The notes under the pieces were generated by a model, which saw only the letters and a program-made list of their open reading frames with translations, had not been told where the DNA came from and made no database searches. Positions 46,021 to 63,564 of a stretch of DNA of 64,000 nucleotides are shown piece after piece (position 1 is the first letter of the stretch; each line of letters starts with the position of its first letter). The stretch is from Escherichia phage 1-6bf. The stretch lies in the sequence record OR983334.1. One strand, 5' to 3'. The position numbers and the translations under genes are program-made.

Positions 46021-46242
46021 ATGAAACTAGACTCTAAGCAGTCACTTAAAACCGCTGAACTGTCCACGCTGCCAAACGGAAGTATCTTTGGTCATGATAA
46101 ACACTTCTGGATTAAAACAGACATCATAGACGATGGGTATATTACCTGTGTCAACCTTTGGAATGGTTCAGTGGATGGTTATCGCCCTAGCGCAAAGGTA
46201 GTCCCTCAGCCCGATGCAAAGGCTATAGGTTTAGTTTACTAA
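46021..46242 (+). CDS. small early protein, paralog family 1 (member E)
   Basis: LPNGSIFGHDKHFWIKTD family pattern. Confidence 0.5.
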   Translation: MKLDSKQSLKTAELSTLPNGSIFGHDKHFWIKTDIIDDGYITCVNLWNGSVDGYRPSAKVVPQPDAKAIGLVY

Positions 46243-47534: not shown

Positions 47535-47783
47535 ATGAAGATTACTCACAAGAAAGAAGAAGTGACCACGGTTGATATCAACTCCCTTCCCAGCGGAGCA
47601 GTATTTAAATTCCCTGAGAGTGCTACTCTCTATGTTAAAGGGTCTGTGTCTGAAAGTCCTAATGTAACCGTTAACTCTGATCGAGCAATTACCCTTCGTT
47701 TATCCGATGGTAACGTAACAGCACCTTCTATCTGGTGCCGAGTTGTTCCTGTGTCAGCAGAACTTTTGGTGGATAACACATAA
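47535..47783 (+). CDS. small early protein, paralog family 1 (member F)
   Basis: LPSGAVFKFPESATLYV family pattern. Confidence 0.5.
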   Translation: MKITHKKEEVTTVDINSLPSGAVFKFPESATLYVKGSVSESPNVTVNSDRAITLRLSDGNVTAPSIWCRVVPVSAELLVDNT

Positions 47784-48028
47784 TGAAGATCCTTCCCAAG
47801 ATTAAAGATAAAACTGTTTCACTGGATACAATTATTCCCGGAAACCCTTTCGTAATCCAACAAGGTTTAGCATCGCCTCAGTATTATATGCGAGTTACCA
47901 ATGTATCCAATAAGATCTCTGTCGAAGAAGGTTGGATTACTACAGTTAATCTTATGACTGGTGTTCTGGGTGTTATGAAAAGTGATACTCAGGTTGAAAT
48001 GATTCGTATGTCAGTGGTTCAGGAGTAA
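47783..48028 (+). CDS. small early protein, paralog family 1 (member G)
   Basis: IPGNPFVIQQG ... YYMRV family pattern. Confidence 0.5.
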   Translation: MKILPKIKDKTVSLDTIIPGNPFVIQQGLASPQYYMRVTNVSNKISVEEGWITTVNLMTGVLGVMKSDTQVEMIRMSVVQE

Positions 48029-48030
48029 TT

Positions 48031-48279
48031 ATGAGCACTATTCATATTAAAGTTAAGAGCAAAGAGGAAACAGTCCTCCGTGTTAAAGATCTAAACATGT
48101 CAGATGTGTTCACTCTCCAAGAGTGCCATCTTCAAAAGATTTACATGCTGACAGCTAAGAGCATAGGTTGTCAACCTGCTGGAGCTGTTAACTTAGGAAC
48201 TGGAGAAGTTCGTCCTGTGTCTGGAGATATGGTTGTTGGTGAGAAGTTTATTAAGGCTGAGATTATTTTAACTTCATAG
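48031..48279 (+). CDS. small early protein, paralog family 1 (member H)
   Basis: LNMSDVFTLQECHLQKIYML family pattern. Confidence 0.5.
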   Translation: MSTIHIKVKSKEETVLRVKDLNMSDVFTLQECHLQKIYMLTAKSIGCQPAGAVNLGTGEVRPVSGDMVVGEKFIKAEIILTS

Positions 48280-49149: not shown

Positions 49150-49176
49150 GACTCTTTTCGGAGAGTCCTTTTTTAA
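49150..49176 (+). terminator. rho-independent terminator
   Basis: GACTCT-TTTCGG-AGAGTC + CTTTTTTAAA. Confidence 0.5.
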
Positions 49177-49195
49177 ATTCAACGAGAGGAAATAT

Positions 49196-49348: not shown

Positions 49349-49711
49349 ATGAATACACGTCCCATCAAGGGCAACGTTAATATTGAAACTCTGAACAAGG
49401 TTGCATCAAACCTCGGTGGAATGTCCAACGATGAGCTTGAGCAAGAACTTGCTTGGATTGCAAATGGTATCAAAGTTGCTAAAGGTAAGATTGCTCGTGA
49501 GCAAAGTAATATGAAAGCTCACAAGTATATCATCCGTCGTGCAAATATGTTACCGGAGCGGGTTGTACATCTTGCCCGTAAGAACTACGAAGGTGCTAAA
49601 GAAGCCCTGCTTGAAGCAGAGTTCCAGAAGCATCAATTTATGAACAACTATCGAAACTTCCGAGATATTCTCTATATCCGTAAATCGATTGAGTTGATTA
49701 AAAACCAATAG
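49349..49711 (+). CDS. hypothetical protein
   Basis: 120 aa, first gene of a tightly packed operon. Confidence 0.5.
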   Translation: MNTRPIKGNVNIETLNKVASNLGGMSNDELEQELAWIANGIKVAKGKIAREQSNMKAHKYIIRRANMLPERVVHLARKNYEGAKEALLEAEFQKHQFMNNYRNFRDILYIRKSIELIKNQ

Positions 49712-49722
49712 AGGTTGGTATA

Positions 49723-50922
49723 ATGTTTCCAGTAACATTAGAAGATACTGAAGGTAATGTTTTAACGGTCAACCCTCCTTGTTATGGGTTCCTTCAGCTA
49801 CGCAATTATAACGGGGGCGTTGAGGAAGAGGATGAAGAATATGATGAGTATTACGAACCTAACATGTATGAGGCAACTCATGGATGGAATATGCACGTTC
49901 GAGTGTGGCATGAAGAAGCTAACGTTCGTAGTGCTGATGGGGAAGAATTCCGATTAAGCAGAGAGATGGATATGTGTAAAATCAAGCATATCTGGAACTC
50001 TGGAACTCATATGAAAATGTTAGGTTTTAGACGTTGGCGCGATGAAAAGCATGTAGCTGAAGCTTTAAGTTGGTGTTCGTATGAAGATGAAGACACGCCC
50101 CCTAAGAATAACATTGAACGTTGGAACGACAAAAACCCTGAACATCGAACCACACCTCGTGCTGTACTGGAAGCTATGGAAGCATTTGTGGACAAAGATC
50201 GTCCCTCCTGTTTACGCTGGCACGATAAAGGTTTTATGGGGGTAGCAACTGAGAACATCCCTGCTGATCGTTGTCTGTTCTATTTGATGTTAGATCGAAC
50301 CTTCTATTGTGAAGATGAAGAGAGTCAAGTTGAAACCTTCCTTCATAAATGGTTGGTTGAAGGCTGGACAATCCTTCAGGCTTATGTTTACTCACGAATG
50401 GTTAGTACCTACACTAACCTCTTGGGGGAAACGAAAGCAACTCTGGTTGGTAATGATTGGGATGCTTGTATCTTCCCAGCGTCGCTGTTTACAGTCGGCA
50501 TGGCTGATAAATATGCTGAAGCATTTCAAGTGCCATGGCGTCAACAGTCGTACAGAGATGGCTGTGGTCACTTCCGTGATGAAGATTTTAAGTGGATTCA
50601 TTATGAGAATGATGAAACAGCAGAATTACGAGTTAATAACTCAATGTTCTTGCCAGTGATGCACCCCGATCTAGTAGAGAGTGAATCAGAAATCCTGAAA
50701 TGTGATAACCTTTTGGTTAACTTTGCTCGTCGTGTCTCTAAAGATGAAAGAACAGCAAATAAATTAGTATATGGCATTCGTGCTGAGACTAAAGACCTGT
50801 TCAACATCTATAACATTGTTCAGCGATTTAGTAGTGGAACTCTGGACCAAAGTTCGGAGTATTCAGTGATTCCATCCTCTGAGTGGGATGGTGTTATGAG
50901 CGGATTATTTTTAGGAAAATAA
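49723..50922 (+). CDS. hypothetical protein (operon with amidoligase genes)
   Basis: 399-aa ORF, no motif recognised. Confidence 0.5.
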   Translation: MFPVTLEDTEGNVLTVNPPCYGFLQLRNYNGGVEEEDEEYDEYYEPNMYEATHGWNMHVRVWHEEANVRSADGEEFRLSREMDMCKIKHIWNSGTHMKMLGFRRWRDEKHVAEALSWCSYEDEDTPPKNNIERWNDKNPEHRTTPRAVLEAMEAFVDKDRPSCLRWHDKGFMGVATENIPADRCLFYLMLDRTFYCEDEESQVETFLHKWLVEGWTILQAYVYSRMVSTYTNLLGETKATLVGNDWDACIFPASLFTVGMADKYAEAFQVPWRQQSYRDGCGHFRDEDFKWIHYENDETAELRVNNSMFLPVMHPDLVESESEILKCDNLLVNFARRVSKDERTANKLVYGIRAETKDLFNIYNIVQRFSSGTLDQSSEYSVIPSSEWDGVMSGLFLGK

Positions 50923-50932
50923 AAGGTTAGTT

Positions 50933-51904
50933 ATGTCAATCTCCACAACGATCGTACCTCTTAACCTTCAACAGGATTTAGGGGAACAGAAGTTCTTAGG
51001 TCGTGGGTGTTTCGGTATCCACAACTACATGCAAGGCCAGTGTGTAAATGACATTAATGGTGAAGTTATCACGGAAGAAGGGCGCTATCGTCGCTTCAAC
51101 CGTGATATCAACTTGCAACTGGAGATGTTGAATTACTGGACTCACTCTTTTCATGGTCATGTTACATCTGATATTGAAAAGAATTTGGTTGAAACAGCAG
51201 ACATTATGAACTCCATGTCTTGCTATCGTGACGTATTTACGATCACTTCAGCGAATAGTGTTGCTGTCAACCTTCGTGAGCATCCAGCAGATCAGATCTT
51301 CACAGGACTTATGCTCTTTCGTAGTATTCTGGAAGGGCAATATCGTGGAATGGATTTCCTAGCAGAAGGAATTGAAGACAGGGAAGAGTGGCTGAAGCGT
51401 AAACGCATCGGCATCGCTCTAGTGTTAGCTGGGTTGGGTCGTGACTTCTTCGGTGGATGGTCTCAACGAGGAAGAGCTAATGGGAGTAGCGAAAGCACCT
51501 CTATTGTTATTAACAACAATATGTCAGCAGCAGCATTCCTTCCTTTGGTTGTAGACTCTGATGAATACACGAAGCAAGTATGGGTTCAAAACCCCTTCGG
51601 TGTTGGCGACAACGAGAATGGTTATGTTCGTAACCATAACCAAGATGCCTTACGAAGATTTGCTCGTGCTAAAGATCAAGACCCGGACGAGTATGAAACA
51701 ATGTCAGAGTGGTTAAGACTCTGGTCCAACTGTTATGGTCACAAACGTGAATCAATAGACGACAAGTTGGGAAACATTACAGTACAAAACTTTACATCCC
51801 GACTGATTCAAAGAACTGGAGCAGATTCCGGTCTTACTCTTGAAGAAGTTGGTAACACAATCTCATCTCTCTTTTCTGAACTAGTGGAGTATTACAATGA
51901 CTAA
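50933..51904 (+). CDS. hypothetical protein (operon with amidoligase genes)
   Basis: 323-aa ORF. Confidence 0.5.
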   Translation: MSISTTIVPLNLQQDLGEQKFLGRGCFGIHNYMQGQCVNDINGEVITEEGRYRRFNRDINLQLEMLNYWTHSFHGHVTSDIEKNLVETADIMNSMSCYRDVFTITSANSVAVNLREHPADQIFTGLMLFRSILEGQYRGMDFLAEGIEDREEWLKRKRIGIALVLAGLGRDFFGGWSQRGRANGSSESTSIVINNNMSAAAFLPLVVDSDEYTKQVWVQNPFGVGDNENGYVRNHNQDALRRFARAKDQDPDEYETMSEWLRLWSNCYGHKRESIDDKLGNITVQNFTSRLIQRTGADSGLTLEEVGNTISSLFSELVEYYND

Positions 51905-52703
51905 GCGCAAATTCCTCATCGGCTCTGACCCTGAAATGTTCGTTCGTACTAGCAATGGTATCATCACTTCTGTAGCCGGTTTATTAGGCTGCTCTAAGGA
52001 CGATAAAATCGCTCTGGCTAAGGATGTTCGTCTCCAAGAGGACAATGTACTGGCTGAGTTTGATATTGACCCACAGAGCGGTTTTGAAGCGTTTAACGAT
52101 AACATGCAACGTGGTATTGATCTCACCAATAATGTCCTGAACAAACTGGACATGGAAACAGCTCCTGGTGTTAGCTCTCACATCTTCACTGAAGAAGAGA
52201 TGAAGACCTTTAATGAATCAGCGTTCATCTTCGGGTGCACTCCTGATTTCAACGCCTTCACTGGTCAGAAAAACCCATCCCCGACTTCTCAGAATAAGGG
52301 ACTTCGTACTGCCGGTGGTCACGTACATCTTGGCGTAGTTGGTGCTTTGGATATCACTCTGCAAACTCAGATGATGCTTGGTGTGCTGTGTGACTACTTC
52401 CTATCCCTCCCAGCAGTAATTATGGACAAAGATACTCGCCGTAAAGAACTCTACGGTAAAGCATCTGCAATCCGTTATAAAGACTATGGTATTGAATACC
52501 GTTCTCTGTCTAACTTCTGGATTAGTGATCGTGAAAACCGTAAGTTTGTTTACGATCAGGTTGACAAGGTTGTTCAGCAATGTGATATGTCCACTCTGAT
52601 GGCATTGCACTCTCGCCTTCCGATTGAGAAGCTTCATGAAATCATTAACGGGAACAATGTTAAAGAAGCTGACCAGCAGATCAAACTCCTTCAGGTAGCA
52701 TAA
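51897..52703 (+). CDS. possible divergent amidoligase-like protein
   Basis: FLIGSDPEMFV and GGHVHLG motifs loosely resemble carboxylate-amine ligase signatures; ATGA overlap. Confidence 0.3.
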   Translation: MTKRKFLIGSDPEMFVRTSNGIITSVAGLLGCSKDDKIALAKDVRLQEDNVLAEFDIDPQSGFEAFNDNMQRGIDLTNNVLNKLDMETAPGVSSHIFTEEEMKTFNESAFIFGCTPDFNAFTGQKNPSPTSQNKGLRTAGGHVHLGVVGALDITLQTQMMLGVLCDYFLSLPAVIMDKDTRRKELYGKASAIRYKDYGIEYRSLSNFWISDRENRKFVYDQVDKVVQQCDMSTLMALHSRLPIEKLHEIINGNNVKEADQQIKLLQVA

Positions 52704-52712
52704 GAGGTTATC

Positions 52713-53330
52713 GTGAGCTTAGTAGCTGATTTTTCTCATTACTATAATGGTACATGGATTGCTAAACGAGCAGGTAATATCAACCTTCCATGTTTTGTGA
52801 TTGGTGTTGAGCAGAGCGGTAACTTCCGCAGTGATGACTTCTCTCACGAAGCAGAGCAGGCTCTGTACTTTGTTGTAGAGCAGTGGTACAAGAACGAGCA
52901 AGGGCATCTTCGAAACACTACGATGAATATCCCAGTGTTCGACCCAACCCTGATTCTTGAATCACCTGACGTTGGTTATCTGTTCCATAACGGTAACACT
53001 GTAAGCTGGACTCATATTAACCCTGTTCGCCAGAGAGCAAAGGGCTTAATGGGTAATAAGATTCGAAATGCTCCGGGTGTTGGTCGTGCTATCTCCGGAG
53101 AGATGGTTTACAGTCTGTTCAATCCTGAATTCGAAGGATTGGTTACTCGTTATATTTACATCAACCCTACAGATGGTAAGGTGCATTATAAAGGTGCACT
53201 GGTAGGACAAGTAGATCTGGAAGCACCTCGTGACTCTTACGGTCAGCAACCGATGCGACTTCTGGAACATTTTCATCACATTTCTGAAAACCTTAGCAAT
53301 TACAATATTACGTTGGTGGATTCGTTATGA
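52713..53330 (+). CDS. hypothetical protein
   Basis: 205 aa, GTG start with GAGG RBS. Confidence 0.45.
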   Translation: MSLVADFSHYYNGTWIAKRAGNINLPCFVIGVEQSGNFRSDDFSHEAEQALYFVVEQWYKNEQGHLRNTTMNIPVFDPTLILESPDVGYLFHNGNTVSWTHINPVRQRAKGLMGNKIRNAPGVGRAISGEMVYSLFNPEFEGLVTRYIYINPTDGKVHYKGALVGQVDLEAPRDSYGQQPMRLLEHFHHISENLSNYNITLVDSL

Positions 53331-54430
53331 CAACTGTAGCGCAAACTTTTGGATATCGAGAAGGTCGTTTAACTGAGGCGCATAGTTCAATTGCACTTCA
53401 GTGCGGTGTCGGTATTGAACTTGAACTCGAAGGTTCCGATCATATCGAAGCAGATATGTGGGATTGTACAGAGGATGGTTCCCTGCGTAATGGTTGTGAA
53501 ATGGTATGTTCACGACCTTACAACGGACAGGAGTTGTTAGACGCTATCAACAACCTGAGTGAAGCAGTAGCTGAATCGCACGCCGAGGGGACTTGGCGTT
53601 GCTCTACTCACGTTCATATGGATATGAGGGATGCTGATAGTAATATCCTCAAGAAAACCATTCTCGCTTGGACCTTCTACGAAAAGATGTTGTTCAAGTG
53701 CTCAGGCTACCATCGTTACCGTAGCAATTTCTGCCCTGCGTTTGCAGTGGTACAAGCACAGGTAATGAATGCCTCTGACGCATTTAACTACGATGGTGAA
53801 GAGTTCTTCAACCGTCTGGTTCGTTCATGGGATAAGTATACATCCCTGAACCTTCTGCCACTTGCCCAATACGGTTCGATTGAGTTCCGTATCAGCGAGC
53901 CTAAGTGGAAACGTGGTCAACTTCTCAATCTGGTTAACCGCTTCTTGATGCTGAAGAAGCTGGCTTTAGATAACGCAGATATGAGCAACGATCAGTTTGT
54001 TGAGCATTTAAATACTGTACGATTTGCCCCAATGCTTCCTTACCTTCCTCTGGATTACAATCTGGATGAATCGGATTTGCATTCAGGTTATTGTATGGCC
54101 CGTGATGTTTTGTATTGTCGTTCTCATGAAGTAGAACAGTCTGGTCGTATTCGTTTACGTCGAACCAACTCCAACGGAGATGTTCTTGTTGACTTGCGTC
54201 TTATGTCAGACTTCTATGGATTCCTTGGTTATGTCCGAGGGAACGCTAACAACTTGTATCAAGAGATTTTGGTTATGCTTCGTACAGCAGACCTATCTCA
54301 AGTAAGACACGCTCCAGAACAACGTATCCGTGCTATTTTTGACTTACTACGTGAGTCAGGTCACAGTGATAGCAATATCACAGGGTACATTCCAGACCAT
54401 CTGGAAAATCAGTTAGAACAAGCGCTGTAA
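53327..54430 (+). CDS. amidoligase-like (glutamine-synthetase-like carboxylate-amine ligase)
   Basis: GVGIELELEG and CSTHVHMD motifs resemble the phage/bacterial amidoligase family; ATGA overlap. Confidence 0.45.
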   Translation: MTTVAQTFGYREGRLTEAHSSIALQCGVGIELELEGSDHIEADMWDCTEDGSLRNGCEMVCSRPYNGQELLDAINNLSEAVAESHAEGTWRCSTHVHMDMRDADSNILKKTILAWTFYEKMLFKCSGYHRYRSNFCPAFAVVQAQVMNASDAFNYDGEEFFNRLVRSWDKYTSLNLLPLAQYGSIEFRISEPKWKRGQLLNLVNRFLMLKKLALDNADMSNDQFVEHLNTVRFAPMLPYLPLDYNLDESDLHSGYCMARDVLYCRSHEVEQSGRIRLRRTNSNGDVLVDLRLMSDFYGFLGYVRGNANNLYQEILVMLRTADLSQVRHAPEQRIRAIFDLLRESGHSDSNITGYIPDHLENQLEQAL

Positions 54431-54509
54431 TCAATGGGTGCCTCTGACAAAGGGGCACAATTTAAAGGTTAATTAGATGAAAGGGTTTACCCTTCAGGTG
54501 GATTAGAAA

Positions 54510-56540
54510 ATTTGTGGCATCGTATTAGCTGGCGGTAATCTGTCAAGCACTGATTTAGACGTATTCAACCAACTCTTTTATGCTGGAGTATTCCGAGGAC
54601 AACATTCCTCCGGTATCTTTGGTCAGCGTAAAAGCACTAAGGAAGTCTTCACTTATAAAGAAGCTCTTCCTTCTTTCGCATTCATCCTACAAGATGAGTA
54701 CAAGAAGCACACCACTGGTGAAACAGCTTACACTGTAGCACCTTCATGGATTGTTGGTCACAGTCGTCATGCAACGAAAGGTGCAGTTAACGCCAAGAAC
54801 GCCCATCCTTTCCAACATGGTAACATCACTCTGGTTCATAATGGAACCTTGATGGACCAAGATCTGTTACCTGACAGCAAAAGCTTCGAGGTAGACAGCG
54901 AGAACATCTGCCACTCTATTAACACTATCGGTGCAGCAGAGACTATTCAAAAGCTGGATGGTGCTTTCACCTTAATCTGGCATGATGCTTCTGATAACCG
55001 CCTTCATATCATTCGTAACGAAGAGCGTCCTTTCCACCTCGCACGTTGTAACAGAGATTGGTTTGGTGCTTCTGAAGAAGATATGTTGATGTGGATTCTG
55101 AAGCGTTCTAAGTCTCATAAGAACCGTATTGACGAGCATTTTGAATGTAAAGTTGGTACAGAGTATATCTTTGATATGTCAAACAACGGCATGACTCTGG
55201 TTGAAGAGGTCGCCCACGAGCTTCCGGTTTTTACGGTAGCCAATCGTTGGGGCAGTTATTACTCGAACAACTACAGCCAAAGCAACTATCAAAGTTCCTC
55301 AAAAAGCAGTACAAGCAATCCCTACGACACGAAGCCGGGAGTGACAGCGGCAGATGTTCGTCGAAGAAACGCAGTGGTAAGTCAAAACAAAATCGCAAGT
55401 GATCGAAACATTGATATTCGCCGCGATATGACTGTGGAAATCACTCCGCATGAGTTTGTTCCTTATGCAACTGCTGGTGCTGTTCCTTCTCGTGGTAAGA
55501 TGATTGGTTATATCTACGATGAGAAATCTCAAGAGTATATCGAAGGTGATGTCCATAACGTAGATATTAAGGCTTATCAGGATGCCCTGAAAGACCCTAA
55601 AATTGTTTACCGTGGGACAGTATCCTGTATCTCCGAAGTTAATGCTATGGTTCGCTTAGTGATCACAGCAGGTCGTTTTGTTGACCCATCTCTGGAGAAA
55701 AAGGAGCCTGAGTCTACTACTGCTGACTTTGATGATGATATCCCTTTTGACATGAATGATAGTTTCGTCAACAAGAATGGCGTTACTATCACTCGTAAAT
55801 TCTGGGAAGCACATTCTCATGGTGATTGTGGTGGTTGTGACAAACACATTGATTGGAAGGATGCACCTAAAGCAGTCTTCGCATATCAGTGCTACTGGCA
55901 TCCTGAATGTCTGGAAGGTTTGACTAAACCTAAAGAGGAAGAAGAGGAGGAGACTCCTATTGGTGTTTGTGAAATCTGTGGTGAAGTTAAAACAGAGAAT
56001 GAGTTCGATGATGAACTTAGTCGTCTTCGCGGTGAAGATATCTGTAAAGCCTGCGCTGTAGAGGTAAAGAAGAAAGTATCTAATGCTACGATCAAAGATG
56101 GTTATGTATGGATTAAAGCAACAGATACAACAAACGCCCGTCGTCCTGAGTTTGCTTTACGTGTAACTGAAGATATGATTGGTCGTATGACTGTATTACC
56201 TTCCTCAGCGAAACAGACAGGCATCACTCTGGAGGATGTTGTTGATGCTTATGTTGAGAAACGTAGCAACAGTATTTTTGCAATCTCAACTAAGCCAAAA
56301 AAGGAGGAACCTGCTGAGAAAGCAGGTGTGTTTCCTGAATCACGAACAACTCTCCGCAAAACTGTTGTCAGCTTCGACGGAAACCGAAGCACTGACTTCA
56401 CCAAAGCCATGTGGTCAACCCTTGGATACTGCTCAGAGTGTTTTAAGCAGATTCCGTGGCGCGATGCTGAAAGTTGTACGCTTGGTTCTATGAATCAAGT
56501 TTATTGTAATTCTCCTAAATGTTCATTGAATAGAGGTTAA
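54510..56540 (+). CDS. class-II glutamine amidotransferase (Ntn) domain protein with C-terminal Cys-rich zinc-ribbon region; non-canonical start
   Basis: CGIVLAGG, GHSRHATKG, NAHPF, HNG motifs in order; catalytic Cys preceded only by AAA-ATT after in-frame TAG; AGGTGGA SD 7 nt upstream of ATT. Confidence 0.7.
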   Translation: MCGIVLAGGNLSSTDLDVFNQLFYAGVFRGQHSSGIFGQRKSTKEVFTYKEALPSFAFILQDEYKKHTTGETAYTVAPSWIVGHSRHATKGAVNAKNAHPFQHGNITLVHNGTLMDQDLLPDSKSFEVDSENICHSINTIGAAETIQKLDGAFTLIWHDASDNRLHIIRNEERPFHLARCNRDWFGASEEDMLMWILKRSKSHKNRIDEHFECKVGTEYIFDMSNNGMTLVEEVAHELPVFTVANRWGSYYSNNYSQSNYQSSSKSSTSNPYDTKPGVTAADVRRRNAVVSQNKIASDRNIDIRRDMTVEITPHEFVPYATAGAVPSRGKMIGYIYDEKSQEYIEGDVHNVDIKAYQDALKDPKIVYRGTVSCISEVNAMVRLVITAGRFVDPSLEKKEPESTTADFDDDIPFDMNDSFVNKNGVTITRKFWEAHSHGDCGGCDKHIDWKDAPKAVFAYQCYWHPECLEGLTKPKEEEEEETPIGVCEICGEVKTENEFDDELSRLRGEDICKACAVEVKKKVSNATIKDGYVWIKATDTTNARRPEFALRVTEDMIGRMTVLPSSAKQTGITLEDVVDAYVEKRSNSIFAISTKPKKEEPAEKAGVFPESRTTLRKTVVSFDGNRSTDFTKAMWSTLGYCSECFKQIPWRDAESCTLGSMNQVYCNSPKCSLNRG

Positions 56541-56542
56541 GT

Positions 56543-56776
56543 ATGGAAATTCGTAAGATGATGCTGGATAACGTTGTAACTACTCGACGTATCCCGATGA
56601 CGAGCACAGGATGTGATAACCTTCGTGCAATCCAAAAGTGGATGCAAGCTGGTATTGGTCAAGTACTTGAAACACAGGTTGAGGTTCCTTTCCCAACGGT
56701 GATCAACAACGTGCTTGCTGATTATGTAAAAATCAAAGGCATTAAGGTAGAACCTCATGTCAAATCTGGTTCCTAA
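56543..56776 (+). CDS. small protein within modification operon
   Basis: 77-aa ORF. Confidence 0.4.
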   Translation: MEIRKMMLDNVVTTRRIPMTSTGCDNLRAIQKWMQAGIGQVLETQVEVPFPTVINNVLADYVKIKGIKVEPHVKSGS

Positions 56777-56981
56777 GAAACCAAAGATCACTCTCCTACA
56801 GTATTATATGGGAGTTCATATCGAATTAGTAACGGAGCAGCGAAAGCTGTATCCGTTCGCTTTCGGTCTGATTGATGCACCATCCGATGAAGTAGAGAAC
56901 GATGCGTTCAACGACTACTTCGAAATTGAAGCTCAGATTCAAAAAACTCGTAACGAAATTCTTAAACTTAAAGGTATCTAA
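56757..56981 (+). CDS. small protein within modification operon
   Basis: 74-aa ORF overlapping neighbours. Confidence 0.4.
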   Translation: MSNLVPKKPKITLLQYYMGVHIELVTEQRKLYPFAFGLIDAPSDEVENDAFNDYFEIEAQIQKTRNEILKLKGI

Positions 56982-56983
56982 CA

Positions 56984-58180
56984 ATGACTACTCGTATCCG
57001 TGTTCTTCCTTATGGCCCTTCCGATTCAGTTCGTGAACTTACTTCTGCAATTAATACTAAGATTCAGGAACTCCGCTTAAATGCTAACGTAATGTCTTTG
57101 GTATCAGAAGGCTCTCGTTATCGTTCTCGAGCTGGTGATATTGTTGTAAACTATGGCAACCGCCGTTATGATGCTTCTTTCTTTGGTGGTGCAACCGTAT
57201 TGAACCCTGTTGAAGCTCTGAACCGAGCGGCTAACAAGATTGCAGCGTTCAACGCATTGCGTTTGGCTGAAGTTAAGACTGTTGAATACACTATCGATCA
57301 CGAATTAGCTCTGAACTGGAACCGAACCGAAATTGTTTATGAACGTGCAACCTTAACTGGTCACTCTGGTGAAGGTATCACCGTTCGTCTTCCGGGAGAA
57401 GGTGTTGCAAGTGCTCCTCTGTATACGAAAGGTATTCAAGGCCCACGTCGTGAATGGCGTGTTCATGTGTTTGAAGGTGTTATCACTTACGTTCAGAAGA
57501 AGATTCGTCGTAATGGATATCGTGAACTGGAAAGCTACCGTGAAGATATTCGTAACCATCACACTGGTTGGGTTTATTCTAACGCATTCACTGAAGCTCC
57601 TCCTGATCAAGTTCTGATTCAAGCTCACAAAGCTGTATCTGCTCTGGGCTTAAACTTCGGTGCTGTTGATCTGATTAGTAAAGGGAATAACGCTTGGGTT
57701 CTGGAAGTAAATACAGCTCCGGGACTGACTGGTACAACTCTGGAGACTTACACTCACAATATCGTTGAGTTTGTTAAGAGCTTCTCTGGTGTTGAACCTG
57801 ACTATCGTGTTGCTTACCAACTGCCTGTTGAAGAAGTGGAAGAAGAATTTGCTGAATCAGCAGATGATGAGAACTTTGCATTAACAGCTGAGCCAGTTGC
57901 TGAAGAATCTTCGGAACCTGTTCCTGAAACGATGCAAGTTGAAGAGCAAGGGTTAGAGATCACCCCGATCACCCGTCGTAATCTGCGTCGTGGTTATTAC
58001 ATCGCTAACATCAAGCATCCTGAAAACGGTTCAACTGTAGCAAGTAACGTAATTGTTTTCTTCTGCGGTCGTAACTTCTACCGCTCTGGCTGGAATGCTC
58101 CAATTAGTGATCGTCAGCTTGGTCGTGTGTTGCAGATTAATAGCATTACCCTGAATGATGGCACTGTTGTAAACTACTAA
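56984..58180 (+). CDS. ATP-grasp ligase (RimK-like)
   Basis: GHSGEGI ... EWRVHVFEG ... GAVDLI ... VLEVNTAPGLTG ATP-grasp signatures; acidic C-terminal segment. Confidence 0.75.
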   Translation: MTTRIRVLPYGPSDSVRELTSAINTKIQELRLNANVMSLVSEGSRYRSRAGDIVVNYGNRRYDASFFGGATVLNPVEALNRAANKIAAFNALRLAEVKTVEYTIDHELALNWNRTEIVYERATLTGHSGEGITVRLPGEGVASAPLYTKGIQGPRREWRVHVFEGVITYVQKKIRRNGYRELESYREDIRNHHTGWVYSNAFTEAPPDQVLIQAHKAVSALGLNFGAVDLISKGNNAWVLEVNTAPGLTGTTLETYTHNIVEFVKSFSGVEPDYRVAYQLPVEEVEEEFAESADDENFALTAEPVAEESSEPVPETMQVEEQGLEITPITRRNLRRGYYIANIKHPENGSTVASNVIVFFCGRNFYRSGWNAPISDRQLGRVLQINSITLNDGTVVNY

Positions 58181-58186
58181 GGATAT

Positions 58187-58435
58187 ATGGATATGTTTTC
58201 ATTGGAAGATCTAGTACAAAATGGAATGATGGAACAAAAAGAGCCTCTGACTGTAGGCTCTCGTAAAGAGTTGCGTAAGTTGTGTGAAGAATGGGGTATT
58301 ACTAATCAGCGAATGATTGGTAATCAGTTCTCTGCAATTGTAACTTTCCTGAAACGTGGTGATAAGTATTCTATGGAATGTGTAGAACGTATCATCACTG
58401 AAGCACAACAAGACAAGGGAGTGACCTATCTGTGA
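58187..58435 (+). CDS. hypothetical protein
   Basis: 82-aa ORF. Confidence 0.45.
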   Translation: MDMFSLEDLVQNGMMEQKEPLTVGSRKELRKLCEEWGITNQRMIGNQFSAIVTFLKRGDKYSMECVERIITEAQQDKGVTYL

Positions 58436-58617
58436 ATAAGTATAAAGTTCTGTTTAAAGATACCAATACCGCTGGTGAAATGCGAGCTATGGACCTCGAT
58501 GCTGATATGTTTAACTTCACTGATGGCAAAGTGGCCTTCTTTCAAGGAAGTGAAGCTATTGCAGTGTTTGAAAGTGCAGCGATCTGTGGCGTAATCAAAA
58601 TCTTTATTACAGAGTAA
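58432..58617 (+). CDS. hypothetical protein
   Basis: 61-aa ORF with ATGA overlap. Confidence 0.4.
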   Translation: MNKYKVLFKDTNTAGEMRAMDLDADMFNFTDGKVAFFQGSEAIAVFESAAICGVIKIFITE

Positions 58618-58686
58618 TCTGCTTTAGCCTCTTCGAAAGAGGAGGCTAGTTCGGATAAACTAAACAAACCAACAAAGGTATAGATA

Positions 58687-59106
58687 ATGTCAGAAGTAAT
58701 TTACGTAGCAACTTATGGTTCTCTTCGTCGTGGTCAAGCTAACTATTTAGTTAATGACCGAGCTGGTGCTAAGTCAATTGGTGAAGGTTGGACTGAAGAC
58801 AACTTCGATCTGTTCCGTTATGGTGGTTCCTACTTCCCAAGCATCTCTCTCACACACAGCAATAATAATAAGCCTGTTCGTGTAGAAGTGTTTGCTACTG
58901 ACAAAGCAGGTCTGGAAGGTCCGTATGACCGTCTGGAAGGTTACAACAAACATAGCCCTGAAGACAGCTTCTATCAGCGTACTCAGATTGCTGTTAAGAT
59001 GGACTCAGGTGAAACTGTTATCGCTTGGATTTATCACATCGACAAAGAACAAGACGTTCTGGTTGAATCTGGCGACTGGTCAGAGTATCTGAAAAGTGAA
59101 TCTTGA
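58687..59106 (+). CDS. gamma-glutamyl cyclotransferase-like (GGCT/AIG2 fold)
   Basis: N-terminal YVATYGSLRRGQAN and C-terminal IAWIYHID resemble the GGCT family YGSL-type motif. Confidence 0.5.
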   Translation: MSEVIYVATYGSLRRGQANYLVNDRAGAKSIGEGWTEDNFDLFRYGGSYFPSISLTHSNNNKPVRVEVFATDKAGLEGPYDRLEGYNKHSPEDSFYQRTQIAVKMDSGETVIAWIYHIDKEQDVLVESGDWSEYLKSES

Positions 59107-59299
59107 GAAAAGGCAGGCTCTTCGGAGACTTGAAGCCAAGTATTTAATGCTACGGTGCAAAATCAACCGACATGAACGTTTCGTTGAAGCTGCACAAACC
59201 AAAAACTTTGAATCATCAGTGGAGATGTTCAAGACACAACTTTCTTTTTATAGGAAAGAACAGGAACAAGTGTGGGATGAAATTCGTTCGTTCTACTAA
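59096..59299 (+). CDS. hypothetical protein
   Basis: 67-aa ORF. Confidence 0.4.
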   Translation: MNLEKRQALRRLEAKYLMLRCKINRHERFVEAAQTKNFESSVEMFKTQLSFYRKEQEQVWDEIRSFY

Positions 59300-59325: not shown

Positions 59326-61116
59326 ATGTCAAAGATCATTTTGGGAGACACAGGTTGTAAGGAATGTATCTCTCATGGTCGTGATAAAACCCACAACCAC
59401 ATGATTCTCTTCCGTAACGAAGAGACAGGTGAGGAGTGGGGAAGTTGTAACCGTTGTGGGAATTACGAAGTGTTCGAAAAGGGCACTACACCTACTCCAA
59501 ACGAGAGAAAAGAGTTATCCCCTGAAGAGTTGAGAGAAGTCTTAGATGATTGCTTAGAGCTTCCTCAGGGAGAGCTTACTCGACGTTTAATCCCCAAAGC
59601 TGTATCAGAGCGTTTTGAGTGTCGCATCGGTCTAAGCCAGACTGATGGGCAGACTCCAGACAGCTACTTCTTTCCTCGTGAACGTGATGGAAACATTGTT
59701 GGTTACGAGGTTAAGCTGCTAGATAGTAAGAAGTTTTATTATGTCGGCAGTGTGAAAGAAGCAGATTTATTTGGTATGGCACAAGCTCAACGTGGAGATG
59801 TGTACAACAAGAAGCTCTTCATTTTTGAAGACCCGCTATCTTGTATGTCTGGTTTCCATGTCCTCACAGCTTTTACAAATGCAACAAACATTAAACCAGC
59901 ATGTGTTTCTTTACCGTTCGGTGCAGGTTCAATCTCTTCTGTGTTGTCTCGTAACCGAGACTTCGTAAATGGTTTTGAGGAGGTTGTGCTCTGCATGGAC
60001 AACGATGATGCAGGTGAGATAGCTTTAACAAAAGGTCGTTCTTTATTCCCTCATGTTAAGTTTGCTCGTATTCCTAAAGGAACTTTCCCATACAACGGTG
60101 TGGAGAAAGAGATTAAGGATGCGAATGACATGCTTCTGTCTGGTCGTGGTCAAGAGTTATTCAACATTCTCAAGTACTCAGCAAAGCGGGAATCTCCTGC
60201 TGGAGCTGTAACAATCTTTGATTGCCTTGATGATGCTCTGAAGAAAGCGGAGTGGGGTATCCCATATCCGTGGAAGACTCTGAATGAGATGACCTTCGGT
60301 ATTCGATGGGGAGAGGTGGTAGCAATTGGTGGTGGAGTAGGGAGTGGTAAAACACTCATTGCTCACGAGCTGGTTGCCCATCTGTGCTTAGAGCATGGTT
60401 TTAATGGAGGTGGCTTCTTCTTGGAAGAGAAGGTAGGCATGTCTGTTAAGAACATTGCTGGTAAGTCAGCATCAATTCCTTTCCACCGACCTGATGTTGA
60501 ATATGATGAGGAGGATTTGCGTAATGAAGCACTTCGTTATGCAGACAAATTCTTCTTGTATGACAACTTCGGACAGAACGAATGGGAAGACATTAAACAG
60601 TGTATCCGTTTCTGGGTAGTTGAAAACCAGTGTAAGTTCATCATCCTTGATAACATTACCGCTCTGGTGTCTCATTTAACACCTTCAGAGATTAACACTG
60701 AAATCAGTAAGATTGCTTCCGAGCTTGCTGGTATGTGTAAAGAATTAGACTTTACCGCTTTCGTGCTATCTCACCTTAATGCTCCGGCAGGTGGTGCTCC
60801 TCATGAAGAAGGTGGACAGGTACGTGAAGTACAGTTCACTGGCTCTCGTTCTCTTATGCGTTGGTGTCAGTGTATCATTGGCTTTGAGCGTGACAAGCAA
60901 GCTGATGGCTTAGCTAAGAACATCTCAGTCATTCGATTGCTGAAAGAGCGTAACTATGGTCAGACTGGTGTCTGTTATACTAAGTATATCAGTGAAACCG
61001 GTAGGCTTGTAGAAAGGGAAGACTTTGAAGTCGATGAAGATAATCCATTCGTTTTAACTAATGGAGAGGATGCAGCTTCTCTCGTCAACCAAGCAGATGG
61101 AGCTTCACCGTGGTAA
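59326..61116 (+). CDS. DNA primase-helicase (T7 gp4-like)
   Basis: N-terminal zinc ribbon (CKEC ... CNRCG), TOPRIM-like CMDNDDAGE, DnaB-type Walker [10 protein letters not shown] and Walker [10 protein letters not shown]. Confidence 0.85.
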
Positions 61117-61667
61117 AGAAAAAGAAGAAAGTGTTTGCATTCGATATCGAGAGTAATGCACTGTACGATGACATAACTAAAGTATGGTGTATTTATATCT
61201 TCGATGTTGAAACTGGTGAAAGGTGGGGCTATCGGCCTCACCAAATCGAAGACGGGATTCGTAAACTGACAGAAGCAGATGTGCTCGTGGGTCATAATAT
61301 TATTGACTTCGACTTACCTGCTCTGAAGAAGATGTATCCCTCTTTGATTAAATATAATTTTAACGTCTTTGACACTTTATGTCTTAGTCGATATCTTAAA
61401 CCTGACCGTATTGGTGACAGTCCTGAGTATCCGAAAGGCGACCCTAGACGTGGCCCAAGGGGTCATGGCTTGAAGCAGTGGGGTGAGTTCTTAGGAGAAC
61501 TTAAGGGCGATTATGGTGAGCAAGAGGAAGCATGGGATGCTTTCACTGAAGATATGTTTACTTATTGTGAACAGGACGTTAACTTAACTGTTAAGGTTTA
61601 TCTTTTCTTGTGTGAAATCACAGGATTTGACCCTTACGACCCACCTTCATTATATTGGAAAATGTAA
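61110..61667 (+). CDS. stand-alone 3'-5' exonuclease (DnaQ / family-A polymerase exo domain-like)
   Basis: Exo I FDIESNAL, Exo [15 protein letters not shown], Exo III YCEQDV closely follow the T7 DNA polymerase exo domain; ORF ends with TAA with no polymerase domain attached. Confidence 0.75.
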
Positions 61668-61668
61668 A

Positions 61669-63018
61669 ATGATTGTTATCCCGATTAACCGAATTGAAGA
61701 TAAGGTTGCTCAACAACCTGATATCACTGTTGGTCGTCACTTCATTGAACAGCTGATTAACAACAACTTGATTCCAGACTGTATTTGTCCTATCATCACT
61801 GGTGGGGCTATTCGTGATGCTGTGCTTAATAACACAGCTCCGCATGACATTGATATCTTTATTGTCAGAGGACAGGCCCCAAGAACTCGAAATACTTTCA
61901 TCCGTCATGAGCAGTGGCAAGATCTCGGACGAGAAGTTGAAAGTAACGTTAAAGAGTGGCTTGAGTCTCAAGATATTGAATATGCATCACTTCTTGCTGA
62001 AGCTACAAACGAATCCTATGCTGGGGGTTCTCAATTAACATTCACTGATATTATTGAGTTTCAGTGGAATGGGGTTCGTATCCAATTCATGTTTAATTAT
62101 CCTACTTCTATCGAAGAGGTATTGGATAACTTTCCTATGATGTGCCGTGGTGCGATGACTCTTGACAACTTATTCATGACTTCTCACGGATACTTGGCTA
62201 TGACTGCCCCTTGTCCAGTGGTTGTTTCTAGTCGTGAAATCAGGTATGTTCACAAGAAGTGGCCTAATTCACAAGTGTTGAGATTTTCCTCTCCAGCAGT
62301 TGCACATCAATACATGGCCCAAACTCGATATCTTCCCACACCTCAGCCAGTTAGTCACCTAGTCAATGGATTAGGTCAGGTTTCTCTTATTGAAGATACA
62401 ACAAGTGCTCTATATTGTGTTAACCGAGACATGAGTCTATTCTTTGGAATCCCTTATGAAGAGATTCAGATTATGTCTAGTCTTCACGGTTCCGGTCAGA
62501 TTCATGCGTATTGGTCTGAAGGGTTGACAAATTTAACGACTAATACAGGAGGAGATCTACTTGGTCGAGAAGAAGAGCCTAGTCGTCATAACGCAATCGA
62601 AGGGGTGTTTGTAGCCCCTACAAGACGCCGAGCAAACGAAGCACGAAATATAAGCTCTACTCGTAGAACATCTTTTGAAGAAGCTCTTGGTATTACAAGT
62701 GATTCTATGGAGAGATGGATGGCTAGTCCTTCTCGTGGTCGACCAAACGGCTTCAATGTTAGTGCACGTCAGTTCTCTGGTCAGGGTTTCGCTGTTGGTG
62801 ATATCAACGCTCCTTCTCGTGTTATCTGGACTGATGAAGGCGTGGCTCAAGATGTGGTAGGTAGTCTCTCCGATCTTGATATTCCTTCTCATGACGAACT
62901 CGCTGAGACTGTCAGCCGCAGTCTCGCTGATCGGTTTGTTGCCAACAATCCTGAAGTATTAGAGCCTCAGGTTGGTGGAGAACTGGACCACTTAATAAAT
63001 TCACAAAACATTCGCTAA
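61669..63018 (+). CDS. Pol-beta-superfamily nucleotidyltransferase (CCA-adding / poly(A) polymerase-like head motif)
   Basis: GGAIRD ... HDIDIF matches the GG-x-VRD ... D-x-D signature of tRNA nucleotidyltransferases. Confidence 0.45.
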   Translation: MIVIPINRIEDKVAQQPDITVGRHFIEQLINNNLIPDCICPIITGGAIRDAVLNNTAPHDIDIFIVRGQAPRTRNTFIRHEQWQDLGREVESNVKEWLESQDIEYASLLAEATNESYAGGSQLTFTDIIEFQWNGVRIQFMFNYPTSIEEVLDNFPMMCRGAMTLDNLFMTSHGYLAMTAPCPVVVSSREIRYVHKKWPNSQVLRFSSPAVAHQYMAQTRYLPTPQPVSHLVNGLGQVSLIEDTTSALYCVNRDMSLFFGIPYEEIQIMSSLHGSGQIHAYWSEGLTNLTTNTGGDLLGREEEPSRHNAIEGVFVAPTRRRANEARNISSTRRTSFEEALGITSDSMERWMASPSRGRPNGFNVSARQFSGQGFAVGDINAPSRVIWTDEGVAQDVVGSLSDLDIPSHDELAETVSRSLADRFVANNPEVLEPQVGGELDHLINSQNIR

Positions 63019-63030
63019 TAAGGAAAAAGA

Positions 63031-63564
63031 ATGAGTTTACTAGGAAGTATTGAACTGCACGATGTAATTGACAATGGTTATCTGGATGCGGAGCATAAGT
63101 ATGTTAACGCTGCTAGTGTGGATATCCGTATTGGTGATACTATCCTTGTTGAAGAACAGGCTGATGGCATCGTTGATATTGATGCGAAAGAAAATCTTCA
63201 GTGGAAGGAAGTAAAGATTCCTGAAGAGGGTTTGGTTATCACTCCGGGTCAGTTCTTCTTGGCTCACTCTATGGAGGAGTTTAATCTTCCAGATAACATC
63301 TCAAGTCTGTTTGTTCTGCGTTCATCTATGGCTCGTTGTGGTTTGAACCACCTCCATGCTGGTTGGGCTGATGCAGGATTTAATAGTAGTAAGCTGACAT
63401 TTGAATTCCACAACGTAACCAAGCACCATAGCTTACGAGTTCGTGCTGGTATGCGTGTTGGTCAAATGGTTATGTTCGAGCACTCTCATGCAGGGGAACA
63501 CTCCTATGCAGTGAAGGGTCGTTATAATAACTCTGAAGGTGTAGTTTCATCTAAAGGTGTGTAA
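63031..63564 (+). CDS. dCTP deaminase family protein
   Basis: VDIRIGD, ITPGQFFLAHS, LRSSMARCGL, AGWADAGFN, LRVRAGMRVGQMVMFE align with the dCTP deaminase/dUTPase fold motifs. Confidence 0.8.
   Translation: MSLLGSIELHDVIDNGYLDAEHKYVNAASVDIRIGDTILVEEQADGIVDIDAKENLQWKEVKIPEEGLVITPGQFFLAHSMEEFNLPDNISSLFVLRSSMARCGLNHLHAGWADAGFNSSKLTFEFHNVTKHHSLRVRAGMRVGQMVMFEHSHAGEHSYAVKGRYNNSEGVVSSKGV

Follow-up and report, generated by a model that had tools for sequence, protein, structure and literature searches.

The cassette and its identity

Fourteen co-oriented open reading frames (ORFs), designated A-N, occupy positions 49349-59299 on the + strand of the 64,000-nucleotide stretch of Escherichia phage 1-6bf analysed here (OR983334.1; hereafter, the window) and make up an operon of amide-ligase, glutamine amidotransferase and cyclotransferase genes (Table 1). 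Megablast with 49349-59106 retrieved 98 phage records, and coverage reached 80% or more in 65; the best relatives were Escherichia phages 1-6af (98.4%) and FH3 (97.4%), and SU10, ES17, Bas91 and their relatives showed about 95% DNA identity. Measured against the published relatives phiEco32, SU10, ES17 and Bas91, the region has 95-98% DNA identity and an identical gene order, and phiEco32 itself contains the same gene set. The source phage is a Kuravirus, that is, a phiEco32/SU10-like E. coli podophage (prolate C3) of the Gordonclarkvirinae. Because the same genes are present in phiEco32 and its Kuravirus relatives, the region is not a new sequence type, and the operon is the already described phiEco32-type amidoligase cassette. 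ORF D matches PF14395, a family named "Phage phiEco32-like COOH.NH2 ligase-type 2", with 34 bits against a cut-off of 25, and ORF F matches PF12224 with 33.5 bits against 22; genes for a class-II amidotransferase, an ATP-grasp protein and an AIG2/GGACT protein lie in the same co-oriented cluster, which is syntenic gene for gene with phi32_77 to phi32_89 and, like them, lies upstream of the primase/helicase gene. Nothing substantive sets the window apart from the described cassette; Bas91, EP335 and SU10 have an extra 69-amino-acid (aa) ORF between L and M that the window lacks.

According to papers that cite them, Iyer et al. 2009 (Mol Biosyst) and Hardies et al. 2013 (J Virol) described this module, the first description dating from 2009. 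The citing papers speak of a seven-gene cassette for peptide-bond synthesis or "peptidoglycan modification", list phiEco32, 7-11, PA11, tf, MR299-2, LUZ24, PaP3, RIO-1 and CW02 as carriers, and give the hypothesis that the cell wall is altered and superinfection blocked. Our literature search found no report of an experimental test of cassette function. As a discovery, the re-identification of a known element has low value; as an experimental target, the cassette has moderate value.

A preliminary description of this DNA, made by a model from the letters alone, had proposed a + strand operon with many ATGA overlaps. The operon stands, and the overlaps are fewer: a single ATGA joins E to F, a GTGA joins K to L, three junctions have longer overlaps, and the remainder are gaps of 2-11 nucleotides (nt), apart from two of 69 and 79 nt. 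A terminator-like hairpin upstream of A is the probable boundary of the transcription unit on that side, as judged from its sequence.

Table 1. Coordinates and assignments of cassette features in the window.
Feature	Position	Strand	Description	Basis
Hairpin	49150..49177	+	Terminator-like hairpin and T-run	Consensus scan only: GACTCTTTTCGGAGAGTC then CTTTTTTAAA
A	49349..49711	+	120 aa, no assigned function	PHROG 11370, no Pfam; by sequence Gordonclarkvirinae only
B	49723..50922	+	399 aa, acidic N-terminal region, lineage-specific	PHROG 13063 only
C	50933..51904	+	323 aa	Motifs CFG.HN and NS..VNLR.HPAD..FTG.M..R conserved (alignment)
D	51897..52703	+	268 aa, COOH-NH2 ligase type 2	PF14395, E 2e-8
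E	52713..53330	+	205 aa, GTG start, partner protein upstream of F	No catalytic signature
F	53327..54430	+	367 aa, Amidoligase_2	PF12224, E 5e-8
F-G intergenic region	54431..54509	+		Hairpin 54438-54458, AGGTGG 54495-54500
G	54510..56540	+	676 aa, class-II (Ntn, Cys1) glutamine amidotransferase, ATT start	E 2e-14
H	56543..56776	+	77 aa, DUF7195	PF23825, E 5e-17
I	56757..56981	+	74 aa, Gordonclarkvirinae-specific	Close relatives only; no Pfam
J	56984..58180	+	398 aa, ATP-grasp ligase, RimK/MptN branch	NCBIfam, PHROG 2599
K	58187..58435	+	82 aa, lineage-specific	Profile and homologue searches
L	58432..58617	+	61 aa, lineage-specific, GTGA overlap with K	Profile and homologue searches
M	58687..59106	+	139 aa, GGACT/AIG2-family gamma-glutamyl(amine) cyclotransferase	PF06094, E 4e-17
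N	59096..59299	+	67 aa, lineage-specific, last ORF before primase/helicase (59326-61116)	

Three ligases and a cyclotransferase

Profile searches of each ORF against Pfam, PHROG and NCBIfam recovered every enzyme family that had been named from the sequence, and with them the general chemistry that those families imply: ATP-dependent amide ligation, transfer of glutamine-derived ammonia and gamma-glutamyl cyclotransfer. D, with the motifs FLIGSDPE and GGHVHLG, and F, with GVGIELELE and STHVHMD, correspond to the two carboxylate-amine ligases claimed earlier, and their profiles and motifs class both as glutamine-synthetase-fold enzymes. Alignment over ten lineages found D11, E13, H142, H144, E200 and R202 of D invariant, as well as E31, E35, E58, H95, H97, E119, R130, E186 and R188 of F; these acidic, histidine and arginine residues are those expected of glutamine-synthetase-fold ligases. 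F resembles the glutamine-synthetase and gamma-glutamylcysteine-ligase-2 enzymes, and its start overlaps the stop of E. Some orthologues carry N-terminal extensions, of about 165-180 aa on the amidoligase of SE131 and LAh_9 (L002 11509-12000 and L004 11452-12000, respectively) and of about 130 aa on the COOH-NH2 ligase of RIO-1 (L005 6041-6460); none of these lineage-specific extensions had a significant Pfam match.

The predicted ATP-grasp ligase is J, which matches PHROG 2599 (E 8e-185) and, in NCBIfam, MptN (2.6e-8, residues 69-251), the RimK family (6.6e-7) and D-Ala-D-Ala ligase (6e-5), with a weak Pfam match (1e-3). Its EVNTAPG motif supports membership of the ATP-grasp superfamily. In the Protein Data Bank (PDB), Ddl and alpha-L-glutamate ligase aligned with J only at the EVN(T/S)xPG motif, and the best similarity over the full domain is to alpha-L-glutamate ligases, closer than to Ddl. 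The scores are low by family standards: J reached 29 bits against a cut-off of 143 for RimK-family alpha-L-glutamate ligases (TIGR00768), 33 against 350 for MptN and 16.9 against 21 for Pfam RimK. An ATP-grasp domain (about residues 1-290) is followed by an acidic linker and an 82-aa C-terminal domain, which forms a PHROG of its own (20552). Thus, although the RimK/MptN/LysX family supplies the best profile matches of J, J differs from it in the linker, the additional domain and scores far below the cut-offs, and the cassette encodes no S6-like or LysW-like partner.

M is the GGCT/AIG2-like cyclotransferase that had been proposed, scoring 63.5 bits with PF06094 against a gathering threshold of 22.8 and containing the YGSLRRG and RLEGY motifs in its translation. 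A glutamate has a catalytic role in GGACT enzymes. Orthologues of M were found in nine of the ten cassette lineages examined.

Start codon and architecture of the amidotransferase

The complete class-II glutamine amidotransferase motif set attributed to G was borne out, as was the reported length of 676 aa, the latter only if translation begins at an ATT codon at 54510. The mechanically called ORF, from TTG at 54849, encodes 563 aa and lacks the catalytic cysteine. The reading frame is open from a TAG at 54504, so that the ATT is preceded by TAG-AAA; it directly precedes TGT-GGC-ATC-GTA (Cys-Gly-Ile-Val) and has an AGGTGG Shine-Dalgarno sequence 8 nt upstream. This context is identical in phiEco32, Bas91 and EP335, the last belonging to a different genus, and an ATG-TGY start is present in seven of eight G orthologues checked in other lineages, the annotated start of K4 being the one without it. 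With ATT-TGT at 54510-54515, the catalytic cysteine is the first residue after the initiator methionine, as in N-terminal nucleophile (Ntn) amidotransferases, and the glutamine-binding and oxyanion residues (Arg, Asn-Gly and Asp) and the Ntn fold are also present. The ATT start is frequently overlooked in automated annotation: the largest G protein cluster (211 members) consists of the 563-aa short form and the EP335 RefSeq entry starts at an internal ATG, whereas phiEco32, SU10 and Bas91 are annotated with the full 676 aa. The AUU start of infC is a known type of translational throttle, and by analogy the ATT of G may act as one.

The 79-nt gap between F and G contains an 8-bp GC-rich hairpin at 54438-54458 (GGUGCCUC...GGGGCAC) without a T-run. 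The gap sequence is identical in phiEco32, Bas91 and EP335, and its RNA fold has a z score of -1.9, which is not significant alone. From its sequence, the hairpin may be an RNA-processing or attenuation site.

A confident AlphaFold model of G, built from an 88-sequence alignment (mean predicted local distance difference test (pLDDT) score 86.6), places the class-II amidotransferase domain at residues 1-240, followed by a barrel at about 300-398, zinc ribbons at 418-472 and 484-526, a small beta domain at 532-593 and a third zinc ribbon at 616-676. The barrel has five strands with a helix between strands 3 and 4, the topology of an OB-fold, which we consider the probable identity of this domain in the model. 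The three zinc-ribbon modules, each with conserved cysteine pairs, account for the Cys-rich zinc-ribbon region that the preliminary description saw fused to the amidotransferase. This C-terminal architecture is partly kept in LUZ24-like and PA11-like orthologues. The C-terminal 430 residues match no synthase fold of the kind that, fused to an amidotransferase, would take up the ammonia, and a single-sequence search with the N-terminal domain returned nothing at E values up to 0.01.

Partner proteins and small ORFs

Wherever a homologue of E (about 200 aa) was found, its gene lies immediately before F, and the family can be recognised as far afield as Zobellviridae. It has four invariant residues (D5, Y9, R105 and G164) and a conserved YKG motif; E had no database matches. 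Its N-terminal residues, about 80 in number, appear to form an SH3-like small beta-barrel in a weak model. A search for domain fusions of E among 1.84 billion representatives yielded 60 clusters, in all of which E stands alone or has disordered tails; a 2694-aa fusion candidate was a spurious match to a repeat protein.

One or two proteins of about 300 aa precede D in all cassette lineages, as two mutually paralogous copies in SE131 and LAh_9 and as a single copy in SJSY21. For C, hhalign supported kinship with the SE131/LAh_9 family (E 7.7e-4), with which it shares the motif NS..VNLR.HPAD..FTG, whereas no relation to the LUZ24 and Zobellviridae proteins in the same position was detectable, and C had no match in PDB or Pfam. 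We also considered B and C as paralogues, but hhalign of B against the C family was not significant.

The small ORFs had been put forward as possible substrates or carriers, a proposal that the analysis did not support. A, B, I, K, L and N are restricted to Gordonclarkvirinae, and among the small ORFs only H, the 77-aa DUF7195 protein, is conserved beyond that subfamily. H follows the amidotransferase gene in six lineages, with orthologues in SE131, LAh_9, SJSY21, PJNS034 and Ab22, and like E it is a conserved partner that shows no catalytic signature. A role for H as carrier or tag was rejected because its C-terminus varies and its sequence pattern, by eye, resembles a ribbon-helix-helix protein. 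The C-termini of H and E are not conserved and I, K, L and N are subfamily-restricted, so the cassette shows no counterpart of the small protein with a conserved C-terminal Glu/Gln or acidic tail that defines the Pup/PafA and LysW/LysX systems. A had no homologue in the other cassette lineages examined, B had no match in Pfam, NCBIfam or PADLOC, and PADLOC gave no match for the nine cassette proteins tested.

Four further small ORFs of 73-82 aa lie just upstream of the cassette, at 46021-46242, 47535-47783, 47783-48028 and 48031-48279. They are mutually paralogous, with 21-24% identity, an N-terminal K...T...L..G..F pattern and a VNL.TG.V motif.

Distribution and early expression

The comparison of gene neighbourhoods that had been suggested as a check showed the cassette to be syntenic across very distant phages. 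Of 50,697 phage records searched by tblastn, 301 contained F and 306 contained D, and the two sets are spread over host genera in much the same way; no D was found in plasmids by tblastn. Profile searches over the loci defined a core of D, E, F, G, J and M, to which H is added in six lineages. The order D-E-F-G-(H)-J-M is kept in SE131, Ab22, LAh_9, SJSY21, PJNS034, RIO-1, K4, 172P1 and CW02, and a variant occurs in the crAss-like phage cr108_1. Every multi-gene locus adjoins primase/helicase and polymerase genes, including that of cr108_1, where the primase and helicase are of different types; a Porphyromonas phage has a lone amidoligase amid structural genes.

Thus, about 300 of the 50,697 records carry an enzyme cassette of six to nine genes, in phages of E. 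coli, Pseudomonas, Vibrio and Aeromonas and in marine and gut crAss-like phages. Several carriers are therapy candidates or grow on E. coli K-12 (BASEL Bas86-94), so deletion, metabolomics, muropeptide analysis and nucleoside mass spectrometry are feasible. Any functional outcome would be a new phage-host interaction, whether wall modification, glutamylation of a host protein, a phage-made metabolite or DNA modification.

In published work on SU10, mass spectrometry of a lysate identified the counterparts of J, G and M together with two hypothetical proteins of 13.9 and 23.3 kDa, and the genes for these products were assigned to the sigma-70-driven early class. We identify the 13.9-kDa protein (CDS 91) as A, and the mass of the 23.3-kDa protein fits E.

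In the PA11-like phage K4, the cassette contains a Peptidase_C26 protein (E 1e-16), a class-I amidotransferase of gamma-glutamyl-hydrolase type, and a search of 50.0 kb of the 50.4-kb genome found no GGACT gene. Homologues of this protein occur in 59 phage records, including phiM6, CVT22, CW02 and cr108_1, where the gene is adjacent to D, and the enzyme has been recruited into the cassette in Zobellviridae and crAss-like phages. Replacement of GGACT by Peptidase_C26 would fit K4, but CW02 has both; C26 is therefore a co-recruited second enzyme type and not a strict replacement. Its recruitment supports gamma-glutamyl-type amide cleavage as a part of the pathway.

The cassettes of SE131 and LAh_9 are flanked by genes annotated as ribose-phosphate pyrophosphokinase and nicotinamide/nicotinate phosphoribosyltransferase (L002 2102-4665 and L004 17130-20268, respectively), a pair that we take to resemble phage NAD-reconstitution counter-defence modules. 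In the window, no such NAD-type gene pair adjoins the cassette.

A proposed pathway and its acceptor

We favour, with a probability of roughly 0.55, the reading that the cassette encodes an early-expressed cytoplasmic multi-enzyme pathway that makes and trims amide bonds centred on glutamate or glutamine, the preferred acceptor being a peptide-type carboxylate on a large substrate. Through acyl-phosphates of the carboxylates, D, F and J would make as many as three amide bonds, with at least one of the three ligases adding glutamate. G could be a donor of glutamine-derived ammonia, by the logic of MurT/GatD or asparagine synthetase: a separate ligase, the best candidate being F with its coupled subunit E, would use the ammonia to turn a carboxylate into a carboxamide. 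Alternatively, G could cleave a gamma-glutamyl amide as EgtC does. M would take a gamma-glutamyl group off an amine as 5-oxoproline, a step that Peptidase_C26 may perform or share in some lineages, and glutamate would then be partly a transient handle. A large substrate is suggested by the probable OB-fold and zinc ribbons of G and by the apparent SH3-like start of E, modules that would bind it. A protein or a peptidoglycan stem-peptide precursor would be the preferred acceptor, phage DNA a less likely one.

Several observations weigh against this pathway. Family profiles of D, E, F, C and H returned nothing significant against PDB sequences; the model of E has an overall pLDDT of 61.5 and is poor outside residues 1-80; and C26 and GGACT, both present in CW02, are not simple substitutes. 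J scores far below every NCBIfam cut-off, so that glutamate is only its putative substrate. On the present evidence G may serve as ammonia donor or as hydrolase, and all statements about substrates derive from family chemistry.

The published idea of a wall target can be phrased more specifically: the cassette would rebuild or amidate the peptidoglycan stem peptide through cytoplasmic precursors, leading to superinfection exclusion or wall recycling. The enzyme set mirrors stem-peptide chemistry, with its gamma-glutamyl linkage, a Ddl-like ATP-grasp protein and MurT/GatD-type amidation, and every examined cassette phage with a named host infects a Gram-negative bacterium, hosts that share one stem-peptide type. 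Pairing of an ATP-dependent carboxylate activator with a glutaminase, as in MurT/GatD and AsnB, is what we propose for F (or D) with G; F, however, has a glutamine-synthetase fold and not a Mur-ligase or PP-loop one, and G is a class-II enzyme whereas GatD is class I. No Mur-ligase, UDP-sugar-binding domain or secreted component was matched among the cassette proteins, so that neither the Mur-ligase partner nor the class-I GatD of MurT/GatD amidation is represented. Moreover, GGACT enzymes act on L-gamma-glutamyl amines and the wall contains gamma-D-glutamate, J is nearer to alpha-L-glutamate ligases than to Ddl over its full domain, and an OB-fold with zinc ribbons, as is probable for G, would be unexpected for a nucleotide-sugar substrate. 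We regard a stem-peptide target as possible but doubtful.

The same modules of G, together with the apparent SH3-like start of E, are typical of macromolecule-binding proteins and would fit a role in protein modification. In this version, the ligases would add glutamate or an amide to a protein of the host or the phage as a step of host takeover, much as RimK modifies ribosomal protein S6 or PafA uses Pup, and E and the C-terminal modules of G would serve as substrate adaptors. J belongs to the RimK-family branch, the glutamine-synthetase-fold ligases include the Pup ligase PafA, and the genes are expressed early. We hold this version only tentatively. Neither a candidate target nor a tag emerged from the searches; E and the small ORFs lack conserved C-termini, H alone extends beyond the subfamily, and no Pup-like or LysW-like acidic tail is present.

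A pathway for a small molecule would not need the macromolecule-binding modules on G and E, and the neighbouring redox and phosphoribosyltransferase genes that might point to one are not consistently present. The enzyme set nevertheless matches the gamma-glutamyl cycle, so that the cassette might make or consume a metabolite with a gamma-glutamyl group (for example, a thiol resembling glutathione, a conjugated polyamine or an amidated cofactor), which we consider unlikely. Gamma-glutamyl cycle and ergothioneine systems (GshA or EgtA, GshB, EgtC and GGCT/ChaC) have one ligase where the cassette has two of glutamine-synthetase fold, G carries large extensions (the probable OB-fold and the zinc ribbons), and no cassette protein reaches an equivalog cut-off. 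In butirosin biosynthesis, the ATP-grasp enzyme BtrJ adds a gamma-glutamyl group that the GGCT-family enzyme BtrG later removes as 5-oxoproline. We propose the same logic for J and M. In a small-molecule pathway, glutamate would be a transient protecting group, as with BtrJ/BtrG or with EgtA/EgtC in ergothioneine synthesis, a variant that seems to us equally improbable. Unlike in butirosin synthesis, no acyl-carrier protein was found in the cassette, and its small ORFs have no phosphopantetheine-type match.

DNA hypermodification and neighbouring genes

Hypermodification of DNA bases was one of the two hypotheses offered in the preliminary description, and it emerges weakened and disfavoured because no base-modifying family was matched, the virion DNA of phage tf is cut by restriction enzymes and restriction sites are strongly avoided. 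Under this hypothesis, phage DNA or one of its nucleotide precursors would receive a glutamyl or amide adduct from the cassette, and the phage would thereby escape restriction. The BASEL study reported Gordonclarkvirinae to be remarkably resistant to restriction-modification by a mechanism that is not known, a resistance that favours the hypothesis even though the window contains 29 EcoRV and 10 EcoRI sites. It is also favoured by the embedding of every multi-gene locus in a replication module, including that of the crAss-like phage with its unrelated primase/helicase types, by the probable OB-fold and zinc ribbons of G and by viral metagenomes, in which amidoligase and amidotransferase genes co-occur with thymidine-hypermodification genes.

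Against these points, the virion DNA of tf was cut by RsaI, HpaI, EcoRV, SmaI and HaeIII and was cloned; this LUZ24-group phage has genes for an amidoligase and an amidotransferase and appears in published lists of cassette carriers. Matches of cassette proteins were limited to amide-ligase, amidotransferase and cyclotransferase families and DUF7195, and included no kinase, glycosylase-like, hydroxymethylase or other base-modifying family. Avoidance of restriction sites is strong in the window, with expectations taken from mononucleotide composition only: CCWGG occurs 9 times against 74 expected and GATC 152 times against 239, PstI and KpnI sites are absent, BamHI and SacI have one site each and NcoI two, whereas EcoRV (29), HindIII (37) and HpaI (30) all exceed expectation. 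The BASEL authors suspect the dCTP deaminase and a nucleotidyltransferase, and not the cassette, of DNA modification. Thymidine-hypermodification clusters (5-HMUDK, aGPT-Pplase, PLP and radical-SAM; Lee et al. 2021) likewise lie near replication genes, and some hold amidoligase or amidotransferase genes as unexplained passengers; the cassette differs in that none of its proteins matched a kinase, glycosylase-like, PLP or radical-SAM family. No adjacent 5-hmU DNA kinase and aGPT-Pplase were found among the cassette ORFs, the rest of the window not having been scanned exhaustively. We judge an adduct on DNA or its precursors to be very unlikely, and the same low standing goes to the specific version in which a glutamate-derived amide is added after replication, the OB-fold and zinc ribbons of G bind nucleic acid and the adduct explains the restriction resistance of Gordonclarkvirinae. 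Were it true, the cassette would represent a new class of DNA hypermodification enzymes, present in about 0.6% of the phage records searched.

The DNA hypothesis had drawn on a nearby dCTP deaminase and P-loop kinase. The deaminase is indeed close, at 63031-63564 (Pfam DCD, 4e-34), 3.9 kb downstream of the cassette. For the kinase, comparison of positions with the SU10 map points to a 299-aa ORF at 2042-2941 of the window, about 47 kb away, as the equivalent of the dNMP kinase of SU10; this ORF has no Pfam match. Between the gene for a polymerase exonuclease subunit and the dCTP deaminase gene, 61612-63018 encodes a 468-aa protein with a weak match to the poly(A)-polymerase/CCA-adding-enzyme head domain (Pfam 8e-4, below the cut-off); its mechanical GTG start falls 56 nt inside the preceding gene. 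This gene and that of the deaminase are the pair to which the BASEL authors tentatively ascribe a DNA modification.

Among the middle genes, that at 474-995 encodes a protein with a Macro domain (Pfam 2e-10) and that at 1659-2051 a member of the SLOG family (YAcAr, 1e-6). Macro- and SLOG-type domains act on ADP-ribose or nucleotide-derived molecules, and these two proteins could be counter-defence factors.

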